Assembly: GCA_044892505.1 (NCBI GenBank)
Contig: CM097882.1
Location: 443,982,001-444,046,000, forward strand
Direction of reading: 5' to 3'
Length of the DNA: 64,000 bases
Source: Schmidtea nova
Lineage: Eukaryota
Part shown: positions 4,501 through 10,500 of the stretch, in pieces
Layout: the number at the start of each line of letters is the position of its first letter
How positions within the stretch are numbered: position 1 is the first letter of the stretch
The notes under the pieces: generated by a model
The model's database searches: none
What the model was told of the DNA's origin: nothing
The model's input: only the letters and a program-made list of their open reading frames with translations
Translations under genes and position numbers: made by a program

Positions 4501-7500
4501 TTTTATTACAAATTTCGAATAATATAATAATTATATATTGTCATAATAATTATATATAATCATAGTAATTTACGTCACTTCAGTGTTGTGACTGTAGTGC
4601 CAGTGTAATCAGAGTAGGTCAGTAGAAGTATCGCTTAAATTTAAAATGATAGTAAGGAACCACTGACTCGCGTAAAAAAATATTTTTTCAGATGGTCTCA
4701 AGCGACCCCTTTTGGGGTCGATACCCACAGGTTGAGAACCGCTGTTTTAATAGTAAGTAACAATATACTGCCTTCAACAATGAATTTGCGAGCTTATGTG
4801 TATTACTGAAAACTGGTTAAATAAATAACATAGCGATATATGTGAGACAAATTCATTATACTTATAATATAATCTTATGACGAAACTGGTAATACATCGA
4901 TAAAATTTATCAGTACCTTTAATGTAAGCTCGCTTCGTTCGAGATCTCTAAAAATACTCCAATTGGGTAGCGTAGAAGTTAACCTATAGTCGGCTTCGGT
5001 CAAACTATTTTTATTAACAATTCTTTCCAGTACAGTCACATAAAAAACATTAATTATTCCCTTCATTTAGCGGTAATTCAAAAATAATATGAAAATTTGT
5101 TGAACCAATTATGTCCATTACAAAACAACTCTGACACAGTTAACAGTTACTGTGTAGTGAATTTGATCACAATTGAGTTGGCAAATTTGGCGGTAAGTTT
5201 ATTTCTCGTAATCAATTAATATTGATATCTTTTCTTGTATATTTTCTGTACGAAAACAATAATATCGTGACTCCAAAATACGATATGAATATGAAATAAT
5301 TTCCAATTTGATGGTGTAGTTCTGGTGCTAGTTGACGAATTGACATCGCGGTGAATTGACATTTCGATGAATTGATATTGCGACGAATTGATATTGCGAC
5401 GAATTGATATTGCGACGAATTGATATTGCGATGAATTTATATTGCGACGAATTGATATTGCGATGAATTGATATTGCGATGAATTAATATTGCGATGAAT
5501 TGATATTGCGATGAATTGATATTGCGATGAATTAATATTGAAATGAATTGATATTTCGATGAATTGATATTGCGACGAATTGATATTGCGACGAATTGAT
5601 ATTGCGATGAATTGATATTGAAATGAATTGATATTGCGATGAATTGATATTGCGACGAATTGATATTGCGACGAATTGATATTGCGACGAATTGATATTG
5701 CGATGAATTTATATTGCGACGAATTGATATTGCGATGAATTAATATTGAAATGAATTGATATTGCGATGAATTGATATTGCGATGAATTGATATTGCGAT
5801 GAATTAATATTGAAATGAATTGATATTGCGATGAATTGATATTGCGATGAATTGATATTGCGATGAATTGATATTGCGATGAATTAATATTGAAATGAAT
5901 TGATATTGCGATGAATTGATATTGCGATGAATTGATATTGAAATGAATTGATATTGCGACGAATTGATATTGCGATGAATTGATATTGTGACGAATTGAT
6001 ATTGCAATGAATTGATATTGCGATGAATTGATATTGCGATGAATTAATATTGCGATGAATTAATATTGAAATGAATTGATATTGCGATGAATTGATATTG
6101 CGATGAATTGATATTGCGATGAATTGATATTGAAATGAATTGATATTGCGACGAATTGATATTGCGATGAATTGATATTGTGACGAATTGATATTGCAGT
6201 GAATTGATATTGCGATGAATTGATATTGCTATGAATTAATATTGAAATGAATTGATATTGCGATGAATTGATATTGCGATGAATTGATATTGCGATGAAT
6301 TGACATTGAAATGAATTGATATTGCGACGAATTGATACTGCGATGAATTGATATTGTGACGAATTGATATTGCAGTGAATTGATATTGCGATGAATTGAT
6401 ATTGCTATGAATTAATATTGAAATGAATTGATATTGCGATGAATTGATATTGCGATGAATTGATATTGCGATGAATTGACATTGAAATGAATTGATATTG
6501 CGACGAATTGATATTGAAATGAATTGATATTGCGATGAATTGATATTGCGATGAATTGATATTGCGATGAATTAATATTGAAATGAATTGATATTGCGAT
6601 GAATTGATATTGCGATGAATTGATATTGCGACCAATTGATATTGCGACCAATTGATATTGCGATGAATTAATATTGAAATGAATTGATATTGCGATGAAT
6701 TAATATTGAAATGAACTGATATTGCGATGAATTAATATTGAAATGAATTGATATTGCGATGAATTGATATTGCGACGAATTGATATTGAAATGAATTAAT
6801 ATTGAAATGAATTGATATTGCCATGAATTGATATTGCGACGAATTGATATTGCGATGAATTGATATTGCGATGAATTGATATTGCGACGAATTGATATTG
6901 CGATGAATTGATATTGCGATGAATTGATATTGCGATGAATTGACATTTCGATGAATTGACATTTCGATGAATTGATATTGCAATGAATTGATATTATGAC
7001 GAATTGATATTGCGATTTGATATTGCGATGAATTGATATTGCGATGAATTGATATTGCGATGAATTAATATTGAAATGAATTGATATTGCGATGAATTGA
7101 TATTGCGATGAATTAATATTGAAATGAATTGATATTGCAATGAATTGATATTGAAATGAATTGATTTTGCGATGAATTGATATTGCGATGAATTGATATT
7201 GCGATGAATTAATATTGAAATGAATTGATATTTCGATGAATTGATATTGCGACGAATTGATATTGCGACGAATTGATATTGCGATGAATTGATATTGCGA
7301 TGAATTGATATTGCGATGAATTGACATTGAAATGAATTGATATTGCGACGAATTGATACTGCGATGAATTGATATTGTGACGAATTGATATTGCAGTGAA
7401 TTGATATTGCGATGAATTGATATTGCTATGAATTAATATTGAAATGAATTGATATTGCGATGAATTGATATTGCGATGAATTGATATTGCGATGAATTGA

Positions 7501-10500
7501 CATTGAAATGAATTGATATTGCGACGAATTGATATTGAAATGAATTGATATTGCGATGAATTGATATTGCGATGAATTGATATTGCGATGAATTAATATT
7601 GAAATGAATTGATATTGCGATGAATTGATATTGCGATGAATTGATATTGCGACCAATTGATATTGCGACCAATTGATATTGCGATGAATTAATATTGAAA
7701 TGAATTGATATTGCGATGAATTAATATTGAAATGAACTGATATTGCGATGAATTAATATTGAAATGAATTGATATTGCGATGAATTGATATTGCGACGAA
7801 TTGATATTGAAATGAATTAATATTGAAATGAATTGATATTGCCATGAATTGATATTGCGACGAATTGATATTGCGATGAATTGATATTGCGATGAATTGA
7901 TATTGCGACGAATTGATATTGCGATGAATTGATATTGCGATGAATTGATATTGCGATGAATTGACATTTCGATGAATTGACATTTCGATGAATTGATATT
8001 GCAATGAATTGATATTATGACGAATTGATATTGCGATTTGATATTGCGATGAATTGATATTGCGATGAATTGATATTGCGATGAATTAATATTGAAATGA
8101 ATTGATATTGCGATGAATTGATATTGCGATGAATTAATATTGAAATGAATTGATATTGCAATGAATTGATATTGAAATGAATTGATTTTGCGATGAATCG
8201 ATATTGCGATGAATTGATATTGCGATGAATTAATATTGAAATGAATTGATATTTCGATGAATTGATATTGCGACGAATTGATATTGCGACGAATTGATAT
8301 TGCGATGAATTGATATTGAAATGAATTGATATTGCGATGAATTGATATTGCGACGAATTGATATTGCGACGAATTGATATTGCGACGAATTGATATTGCG
8401 ATGAATTTATATTGCGACGAATTGATATTGCGATGAATTAATATTGAAATGAATTGATATTGCGATGAATTGATATTGCGATGAATTGATATTGCGATGA
8501 ATTTATATTGAAATGAATTGATATTGCGATGAATTGATATTGCGATGAATTGATATTGCGATGAATTGATATTGCGATGAATTGATATTGCGATGAATTA
8601 ATATTGAAATGAATTGATATTGCGATGAATTGATATTGCGATGAATTGATATTGAAATGAATTGATATTGCGACGAATTGATATTGCGATGAATTGATAT
8701 TGTGACGAATTGATATTGCAATGAATTGATATTGCGATGAATTGATATTGCGATGAATTAATATTGCGATGAATTAATATTGAAATGAATTGATATTGCG
8801 ATGAATTGATATTGCGATGAATTGATATTGCGATGAATTGATATTGAAATGAATTGATATTGCGACGAATTGATATTGCGATGAATTGATATTGTGACGA
8901 ATTGATATTGCAGTGAATTGATATTGCGATGAATTGATATTGCTATGAATTAATATTGAAATGAATTGATATTGCGATGAATTGATATTGCGATGAATTG
9001 ATATTGCGATGAATTGATATTGCGATGAATTGACATTGAAATGAATTGATATTGCGACGAATTGATATTGCGATGAATTGATATTGTGACGAATTGATAT
9101 TGCAGTGAATTGATATTGCGATGAATTGATATTGCTATGAATTAATATTGAAATGAATTGATATTGCGATGAATTGATATTGCGATGAATTGATATTGCG
9201 ATGAATTGACATTGAAATGAATTGATATTGCGATGAATTGATATTGCGATGAATTGATATTGCGATGAATTAATATTGAAATGAATTGATATTGCGATGA
9301 ATTGATATTGCGATGAATTGATATTGCGACCAATTGATATTGCGACCAATTGATATTGCGATGAATTAATATTGAAATGAATTGATATTGCGATGAATTA
9401 ATATTGAAATGAACTGATATTGCGATGAATTAATATTGAAATGAATTGATATTGCGATGAATTGATATTGCGACAAATTGATATTGAAATGAATTAATAT
9501 TGAAATGAATTGATATTGCGATGAATTGATATTGCGACGAATTGATATTGCGATGAATTGATATTGCGATGAATTGATATTGCGATGAATTGACATTTCG
9601 ATGAATTGACATTTCGATGAATTGATATTGCAATGAATTGATATTATGACGAATTGATATTGCGATTTGATATTGCGATGAATTGATATTGCGATGAATT
9701 GATATTGCGATGAATTAATATTGAAATGAATTGATATTGCGATGAATTGATATTGCGATGAATTAATATTGAAATGAATTGATATTGCAATGAATTGATA
9801 TTGCGATGAATTGATATTGCGATTTTTTGAACGTGCATTTGTTTGGTGATTAATAAAACAAACGTATTTTTTTCATATAACAATTTAGTATATTATACAT
9901 ATAGATAAAGTAGAGGCACTACAATGGCCCCCGCTGAAGTACGCGGAGCGTATGGGGACTGAATGCAACGGAAGAGAACCAATTATCGATGGTAGTTTCT
10001 ATCAGATAATATGGGAAGTATTGCTGGAGGCGGTGGATGCGGTTGGTTAAACATGGACCGTGTTAAGGGTAGGTAGATGGAATAAATGGGAGGCGGTTTG
10101 TGCCGAGTGTCGGAACACATGGAGGTTTTCCTCCAAATCTTCGTCGACTGGAAGATGGAGGGGGTAGATTGGTAGATGGAATAAATGGGAGGCGGTTTGT
10201 GCCGAGTGTCGGAACACATGGAGGTTTTCCGCCAAATCTTCGTCGACTGGAAGGTGGAGGGGGTAGATTATGTTGATCATTTAGAACGAGACCAGATTTG
10301 AGGCGGTTCAAGCTTATAATGTGTAGTGTACCGTCGATATATAACTAAGCAGTGTTTTTGAAAAATTTGATCATTGGAAAAGGTCCTTTTGTCGCGGGGT
10401 TTCATGTTTGAAGTATTGACACATTTTAACCAGGATTGCGAAGCTTAGACGAATGACTTTGGGATGTAGGGTTTGTACAGTGTTAACTTTGTGAAGGACG

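Follow-up and report, generated by a model that had tools for sequence, protein, structure and literature searches.

The window, i.e. the whole stretch of 64,000 nucleotides that was analysed, harbours on its minus strand a decayed Gypsy element whose 3' LTR contains a 16-bp minisatellite of 281 units (5337..9823, minus strand), whereas the paired 5' LTR holds two units only. It seems probable that a non-autonomous Gypsy element with a dimer in its LTR was inserted here, that the dimer of the 3' LTR then grew stepwise, that the repeat unit is LTR sequence, and that a CAF1 fragment found in the same element is a separate passenger.

At 5337-9823 TRF returned an array of period 16 with 281.0 copies (88% matches, score of 6916), and at 15487-15518 it detected 2.0 copies. 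This bears out the sequence-only reading, which had counted about 280 units in the 3' LTR against about two in the 5' LTR between the same flanks and had confined the array to the former; both features lie where it had placed them, except that their left ends had been drawn 3 bp too wide. The array consists of a lead of 12 units followed by blocks of 105, 64 and 100 units (5529-7205, 7206-8226 and 8227-9823, minus strand), which contain sub-repeats of 11-12 units, and periods of 64 and 169 units stand out in it (0.35, against at most 0.27 in 200 shuffles). Parsing distinguished 26 types among the 281 units, the main one accounting for 123. Tandem repetition with higher-order repeats, as found here, is the mark of satellite DNA; at 4.5 kb and a single locus the array is of minisatellite scale. 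Folding of 160 nt revealed no hairpin bias in the array (z=0.81), and hence no structural driver.

The two-unit seed in the 5' LTR (15487..15518, minus strand) is an imperfect dimer with two differences, and its units match the first and the last unit of the array at 15/16 and 16/16 positions, respectively. Outside the array, plus-strand matches to the unit with up to 3 mismatches occur in the window at 15487 and 15503 only. The flanks are common to array and seed, 9792-9924 being 91% identical to 15487-15617 and 5286-5368 being 88% identical to 15433-15518, with a distance of ~5.7 kb between the seeds. Beyond both repeat ends no similarity was found (209/300 and 281/300 shuffles score equally). 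A lone minus-strand match to the unit, with 2 mismatches, was located at 48124, and a scan for bacterial terminators reported one terminator-like hairpin spanning the two seed units, which is not read as function. Rfam gave 0 matches over positions 4000-17000, and 0 tRNA genes were detected in the window.

Array and seed lie in the 3' and the 5' LTR, respectively, of a single decayed minus-strand Gypsy element. The 3' LTR (5263..9923), swollen by the array, starts with TGTAGTG at 9923 and ends near 5263; the 5' LTR spans ~232 bp (15385..15616, minus strand). The internal region is thereby bounded by direct terminal repeats starting with TG, as expected of Ty3/Gypsy. LTRs canonically end in CA; both LTRs of this element end in TA, likely as a result of decay, and the terminal 7-mer of the 3' LTR matches the inverted start at 5/7 positions. 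The pentamer TTATT, which adjoins the element on the minus strand both downstream (5258..5262) and upstream (15617..15621), is a candidate target-site duplication, albeit a weak one: it is AT-only, is found at 0.9% of positions in the local flanks and would match by chance in a few percent of cases. A primer-binding site (PBS; 15373..15383, minus strand) follows the 5' LTR and a polypurine-tract-like stretch (PPT; 9924..9940, minus strand) precedes the 3' LTR, again as in Ty3/Gypsy. The former agrees at 11/12 bases with the tRNA-Leu PBS described for Steamer in the available part of PMC8905726. The latter is common to a sister element in the window, here called D (95% between 9913-9956 and 56046-56089).

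The domains follow the Ty3/Gypsy order of RT, RNase H and integrase, all on the minus strand. RNase H is preceded by the first ~57 residues of RT (11059..11876; Pfam RT_RNaseH, E=6e-12; tblastn with the sister RT), RT being largely deleted and its remainder missing, and the integrase (10258..11047) is frameshifted (Pfam rve, E=0.004; 54-67% to the sister integrase, E=9e-73). The gag region (12656..14672, minus strand) has a DUF7041 match below the cut-off (E=3e-4) and is interrupted at about 14190/13340 by ~850 bp from the 3' end of another Gypsy element, comprising half of an integrase (rve, E=1.5e-7) and an LTR-like start. No protease was matched by Pfam in the element. The CsRn1 clade, a lead suggested by the look of gag and integrase, was rejected, as it calls for a tRNA-Trp PBS and none lies near either element start, the site found being of the Leu type. 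Steamer was likewise set aside: its LTR starts with TGTAACA, that of the present element with TGTAGT, and the Leu PBS is the sole common feature. The giant planarian Burro elements, which exceed 30 kb and carry a giant multi-domain ORF, were rejected too, the element described here measuring 10.4 kb with the array and 5.9 kb without it.

The CAF1/CNOT7 fragment reported by the sequence-only reading is present at 14885..15352 (minus strand) and is 77% identical to residues 161-316 of Dugesia japonica CAF1. It has no stop and no gap, lacks motif I and shows no poly(A) at its end. The fragment begins sharply at 15352 (residue 161), just past the primer site and ~135 bp from the repeat, the PBS lying between the 5' LTR and the fragment: identity per 20-residue block is 14-18/20 downstream of this position and 1-2/20 upstream of it. 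The closest CAF1s align only to 15352-14885, the nearest match beginning at ORF residue 70. A CAF1 HMM of 36 sequences (35 named ones and P0002, from 120 listed relatives) scored the fragment at 200 bits and every LTR frame at -1.0 bits or less. Partial host coding sequence inside an LTR element, devoid of poly(A), is what characterises LTR-mediated retrocopies, and the passenger, in which the first catalytic motif is missing, is probably a dead retrocopy.

The genome is of planarian type, and the element is predicted to sit in sense orientation in an intron of a CFAP45-like gene, an exon of which lies upstream of that intron (16455..16802, minus strand), with others at 23494-24006, about 3880-4020 and 1632-1928. 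The assignment is based on translation, on Pfam TPH matches below the cut-off (E=1e-4 and 6e-6) and on PDB CFAP45 (E=8e-7 for 23494-24006).

The two LTRs of a retroelement are identical at insertion, and those of this element presumably were so. At present they differ in 13/173 aligned columns, or 7.5% (CI 4.1-12.5), whereas the array blocks differ at 1/1021, 3/1565 and 3/941 positions, or 0.1-0.3%. Hence, the last growth of the array would be far younger than the insertion, unless the figure for the blocks reflects assembly error in part. The gaps between blocks are all multiples of 16. Furthermore, a stretch of 117 units contains 18 distinct substitutions, 7 of which are seen once, while about 70 (37-117) private changes would be expected had it stood unchanged since insertion. 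These observations suggest that the Gypsy element entered the CFAP45-like intron with the imperfect 16-bp dimer already in its LTR, and that the dimer of the 3' LTR afterwards slipped or was exchanged unequally in register. Single units would have given rise to groups of 11-12 units and these to a block of ~105 units, which would have been doubled before a 64-unit duplication arose that spans the junction between blocks; the dimer of the 5' LTR would have been retained all along. The CAF1 fragment may be an earlier, separate passenger, taken from an mRNA through a template switch immediately behind the primer site. Growth in one LTR after insertion, as proposed from the sequence, is therefore the best reading, but its direction is not proven, since private changes are also lost through turnover within a long array, and the same edge units would be left if the 5' LTR had undergone a collapse. 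Likewise, the inner insert makes the element a composite, so that a recombinant origin may be envisaged. To describe the array as caught at birth is an overstatement, given LTRs that are ~7.5% diverged and three levels of internal history.

It is conceivable, if doubtful, that the length of the array is partly an artefact of assembly, with alleles or looped reads placed in tandem, and that the true array comprises about 110-220 units, which would be compatible with growth. The blocks are indeed 99.7-99.9% identical, and 8 N-gaps in the window demonstrate that the assembly is not gap-free. However, N is absent from the array itself, five whole-unit gaps distinguish block 1 from block 3, the 64-unit duplication crosses a block junction and has a substitution of its own, and the pattern of 23 unit types within one block cannot come from assembly.

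A different origin of the unit, which we consider unlikely, is that the LTR body contains an older piece of CAF1 (about residues 95-124, motif I included) that has decayed heavily, with the units at the V-A-I-D-T-E-F-P-G-V-I codons. The unit would then be motif sequence that was decayed, or deleted and then duplicated, and would be read in frames other than that of the sequence-only reading. Directly beside the units a 21-nt patch (15466..15486, minus strand), possibly a chance match, fits planarian CAF1 VKLHQDY at 18/21 bases in both LTRs, its end lying 2 nt away from the diagonal that starts at the CAF1 junction; its score is attained by null segments in 26/900 and 17/900 cases (p about 0.02-0.04), and its score and diagonal together in 1/900 and 0/900. 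The CAF1-like signal is planarian-specific, with z about 3 for P0001 and P0002 and about 0 for 4/4 other CAF1s. In global mode, the 32 nt of units gave 9-15/600 against the 33-nt motif span, and the 5' LTR, when aligned by codon profile to the N-half of planarian CAF1, exceeded most nulls (3-9/250), with 0/72 decoy proteins scoring higher, which argues against an origin from LTR sequence only. In sister element D, moreover, ribosomal protein L6 sequence lies beside, perhaps within, the repeat of that element.

On the other hand, the alignment of CAF1 to the LTR, over about 217 nt, needs 14-15 gap events, against none in the 468 nt of the true CAF1 piece, and the 113 nt that separate the patch from the junction are at null level (114-288/600), so that nothing visible accounts for the diagonal of the patch. 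It is precisely the conserved motif residues that are left unmatched, while the K-R-S-T match falls within sequence that is common to sister LTR D and absent from the 3' LTR. Local alignment of the units to the motif codons is null (190-202/400 null segments score as high), as is the comparison of CAF1 DNA with the left flank beyond the LTR end, and at the protein level 0/36 CAF1 N-halves fall below p=0.05 (best 15/300). It should also be kept in mind that the analysis went through several parameter sets and several sub-windows, some of them picked after the patch had been seen.

Quite unlikely, in our estimate, is the broader proposition that LTRs and leaders of this Gypsy family are in part captured host mRNAs (CAF1 here, L6 beside the repeat of D and a Q/N-rich piece behind the PBS of sister element C) and that the 16-bp unit represents decayed CAF1 catalytic-motif codons, active-site DNA having passed into an LTR and from there into a satellite with its seed still in the other LTR. 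In favour of the main reading, by which the unit is LTR sequence, the first half of the LTR is homologous to LTR D (0/1000 shuffles as high); its second half is at null level against LTRs C and D (612-989/1000). The ORF of D had no match among longer proteins and none in the Atlas, its repeated part alone had no PDB match at E 10, and the cargo of C yielded no Pfam and no PDB match and only an Atlas lead at 0.81.

It appears improbable that both LTRs already contained a long array on arrival, or that two copies recombined into the present element, the array of the 5' LTR having later collapsed until only its edge units were left and the 16-mer being present family-wide. Collapse likewise predicts the two edge units, the element is composite with its inner insert, and at a change rate of 2% per LTR a static array would have 26 unit types on average, not far from the 23 seen. 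At the central estimate, however, 42 types are expected (minimum 29 of 500 runs), along with about 70 private changes where 7 are seen; sister LTRs C and D are without such a unit, and the target duplication, though weak, suits one insertion.

Hardly credible is the original proposal that QYQFIAM is the in-frame motif I of CAF1 and that one 16-nt duplication removed D-T-E. The minus-strand unit does encode QYQFIAM, in an open frame (14831-15565) that also contains the CAF1 piece, and at roughly the right distance upstream; 3 among 150 listed distant matches extend over it, and the 71 codons upstream of the piece are open, as they are in 22/940 AT-matched segments. Yet the nearest CAF1s read KRSTVVAIDTEFPG rather than the vertebrate-type KYNYVAMDTE quoted in the sequence-only reading, the resemblance to intact CAF1 at this motif, on which the proposal had staked itself, fails at the protein level, and no frame of the 5' LTR contains D-x-E or F/Y-P-G. 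A 16-nt duplication would shift the frame used and lengthen the spacer, which is in fact shorter, AM and QST standing in frame 47 codons apart against about 52 residues in planarian CAF1. The 71-residue stretch matched no CAF1 in PDB (3 zinc-finger matches, E 0.7-1.7) and nothing in Pfam, and the primer site falls midway in the supposed coding sequence.

The birth of repeats inside LTRs is well documented, the starting state usually being inferred from other copies. According to the available parts of PMC6947457 and PMC9659126, the mouse minisatellites Ms6-hm and Hm-2 arose in MaLR LTRs; as there, a short LTR motif would have grown at one locus to a long tandem array, but here the unit is of 16 bp, the element is a Gypsy and, within one and the same insertion, the partner LTR still keeps the unexpanded seed, which provides a clock. 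The Ogre-derived satellites of Lathyrus sativus, as far as described in the portion of PMC7004042 at hand, are of 3' UTR origin, multi-locus and of chromosome scale; they share with the present case the occasional expansion of short Gypsy-borne arrays and the higher-order repeats of long ones, whereas this array is inside an LTR, 4.5 kb long, in a gene intron and seen at one locus. Sobo, St3-58, CRM1TR/CRM4TR and MALREP, in the same part of PMC9659126, also have monomers from LTR sequence, but are satellite families, the present array being known from one locus. Like the LTR-mediated retrocopies treated in the accessible text of PMC5131818, the CAF1 passenger is a partial mRNA in an LTR element, without poly(A), of a kind that can move again. 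Smed-not7C.1 and not7C.2 are two similar untranscribed CAF1-like loci and possible planarian pseudogenes (PMC3868585, in the part available), and a link of these to the CAF1 fragment is only a lead. A search of literature open without subscription on one-LTR arrays, planarian satellites and planarian CAF1 capture yielded, among the papers listed, nothing on this repeat.

The CAF1 passenger may matter only as a putative origin of small RNAs that target the mRNA of the host deadenylase, and were the LTR body derived from CAF1, a rare chain from coding sequence to LTR to satellite would be at hand. DNA methylation is reportedly absent from planarians and would hardly be informative here. The useful part of the finding is the built-in two-unit control, the paired LTR giving both the seed and the clock (7.5% vs 0.1-0.3%). 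Since the unit variants preserve the succession of steps that led from the dimer to higher-order blocks, this single locus may be used as a test of early satellite growth.

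The 16-bp array lies in element A, a decayed Gypsy LTR retrotransposon on the minus strand within an intron of a CFAP45-like gene (PDB E=8e-7; Pfam TPH match under the cut-off). The 5' LTR starts at 15616 and ends near 15385, and is followed by a primer site at 15383, 11 of whose 12 bases match the tRNA-Leu site given for Steamer in the excerpted text of PMC8905726, and, 31 nt past it, by a CAF1 piece (15352-14885). Next come an AT-rich leader common to the related element C, gag, truncated RT, RNase H, integrase, a polypurine tract (PPT) common to the related element D, and the second LTR (9923 to ~5263), which carries the array. 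Gag is interrupted at 14190-13340 (-) by ~850 bp from the 3' end of another Gypsy element (half of an integrase, a purine tract and an LTR-like start), joined in frame to the gag N-part as a single 352-codon frame. TTATT is present on both sides of the element, but this 5-mer is found at 0.9% of positions nearby, and it is uncertain where exactly the element ends. The element is unable to move by itself. It is not a Burro element as described in the portion of PMC6431247 consulted, and lacks the Trp primer site of CsRn1 (PMC2582038, excerpt). A 99-bp tandem duplication, 97% identical, is located between integrase and PPT (10072-10269).

The array, placed in the 3' LTR by the sequence-only reading as well, has a period of 16 and comprises 281 units at 5337-9823, versus a two-unit copy (the dimer) at 15487-15518 in the 5' LTR. 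Their flanks match at 88-91% and the similarity stops cleanly at either end; no further plus-strand unit copies with three or fewer mismatches were found within the 64-kb window. A 12-unit lead is followed by three blocks of 105, 64 and 100 units, which diverge in sequence by 0.1-0.3% and whose length differences are all multiples of the unit, with sub-repeats of 11-12 units within a block. The 64-unit piece was the last step, since it duplicates the junction of the two long blocks.

The LTRs diverge at 13 of 173 aligned columns, a few of which sit at junctions (7.5%, CI 4.1-12.5), and by 7 gap events. Among the 18 distinct substitutions in the first 117 units, 7 occur once, whereas ~70 single-occurrence changes would be expected had this stretch dated from the insertion. 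This favours expansion in one LTR only, with the array growing once the element was in place, presumably through slippage in register or unequal exchange. It does not prove growth: an array that had collapsed in the 5' LTR would also be reduced to these edge units, a simulated static array yields 26 unit types if divergence is at the bottom of its range, which fits the 23 observed, and turnover within the array likewise erases private changes. Assembly error could account in part for the near-identical blocks; the window contains 8 N-gaps.

The presence of CAF1 sequence was confirmed: residues 161-316 are encoded without stop or gap, and the closest relative is CAF1 of Dugesia japonica (77%), with the planarian-type protein P0002 equally close, which points to a planarian host. 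Compatibility with CAF1 codons is gap-free at 428 of 468 bases (91%), and identity per 20-residue block amounts to 14-18 downstream of 15352 and 1-2 upstream. Of the 139 sites that are identical in the two planarian-type proteins, the fragment differs at 26, glycine losses among them; this looks like decay, and suggests capture somewhat earlier than insertion of the element. The CAF1 frame (14831-15565, -) is open for 71 codons upstream into the LTR, as in 22 of 940 matched segments; a unit of the dimer contains an ATG, and the LTR-LTR indels downstream of this ATG total 27 nt and preserve the frame.

The proposal that the unit, reading QYQFIAM, derives from CAF1 motif I (KRSTVVAIDTEFPG in planarian CAF1) was not borne out in this form. 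Neither D-x-E nor F/Y-P-G is present in any 5' LTR frame, all LTR frames score below 0 against a CAF1 HMM (36 sequences among the 120 relatives listed), and none of 36 CAF1 N-halves, the part bearing motif I, matches the LTR at protein level at p<0.05 (best 15/300). The proposal also contradicts itself: a 16-nt duplication would shift the frame and lengthen the spacer, yet QYQFIAM and the CAF1 piece downstream share one frame, separated by 47 codons versus ~52 in planarian CAF1. Among the distant relatives listed, 3 of 150 matches extend across the peptide, which explains the earlier impression.

An older, separate capture, by which the LTR body including the motif region would be decayed CAF1, can yield both the C-half and a faint LTR likeness, and is an unlikely variant. 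In a codon-profile alignment the 5' LTR resembles the planarian CAF1 N-half faintly but colinearly: in global mode its score is equalled by 3-9 of 250 nulls drawn from the genome and by 0-1 of 250 block shuffles, none of 72 decoy proteins scores higher, and four non-planarian CAF1s give no signal. The core of this likeness, a 21-nt patch directly after the units, is compatible with VKLHQDY at 18 of 21 bases in both LTRs and lies 2 nt off the junction diagonal (nulls 17-26/900 by score, 0-1/900 by score and diagonal), although sub-windows were selected once it had been seen. Set against the motif codons, the units by themselves are at null level in local alignment and at 9-15/600 in global alignment. 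The 113 nt from patch to CAF1 junction are likewise at null level, and the alignment requires 14-15 gaps and lies partly in sequence common to the LTR of D. At the repeat of element D there is sequence of ribosomal protein L6 (Pfam E=7.5e-8; PDB E=1e-9), although the repeated part taken alone gives no match. One capture for both parts is excluded, since the gap-free C-half sits beside a gapped likeness.

In element D (57357-55575, -), 212-bp repeats, 99% identical, flank an integrase piece with an intact frame and joined in frame to the upstream repeat, while a frame starting in the downstream repeat continues into an internally deleted L6 fragment; the PPT is that of element A. Element C (38626-41700, +) has the LTR start of A, a degenerate Leu-type primer site at 38819 and a Q/N-rich open frame in the slot where A holds CAF1; the body of its LTR is 84.5% identical to 45115-45252. 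At 44411-45850, between N-gaps, a segment of 70-170 bp recurs in direct and inverted orientation and looks like hairpin termini or poor assembly; the adjacent frame 42923-44188, with no Pfam match, is presumably Penelope-like. The window also harbours a Gypsy pol remnant (35412-36361), a tubulin-tyrosine-ligase SET-like domain gene piece within another intron of the CFAP45-like gene (20961-22091, -; Pfam E=2e-27), an intronless 377-codon tubulin frame (58573-59706, -; Pfam E=5e-47), a 248-bp repeat of 3.4 copies at 99% (24532-25384), a 651-codon open frame (26766-28721, +) without Pfam match which we take to be DNA transposase-like, and two open frames of higher GC content, 206 and 220 codons long, within 46708-48121 (-), again without Pfam match.

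None of the papers listed for planarian satellites, one-LTR arrays and CAF1 capture deals with the 16-bp repeat; the excerpts seen note nested tandem repeats in planarian assemblies (PMC11410931) and two untranscribed CAF1-like loci (Solana et al., PMC3868585). The CAF1 piece follows the pattern of partial mRNAs carried within LTR elements, as outlined in the part of Tan et al. consulted (PMC5131818). Minisatellites and satellites arising in LTR elements, including mouse Ms6-hm from a MaLR LTR, are listed in two reviews (PMC6947457 and PMC9659126), and short arrays within Ogre elements expand according to the excerpt of Vondrak et al. (PMC7004042). The array is thus a further case of an LTR-born repeat, a phenomenon already documented.
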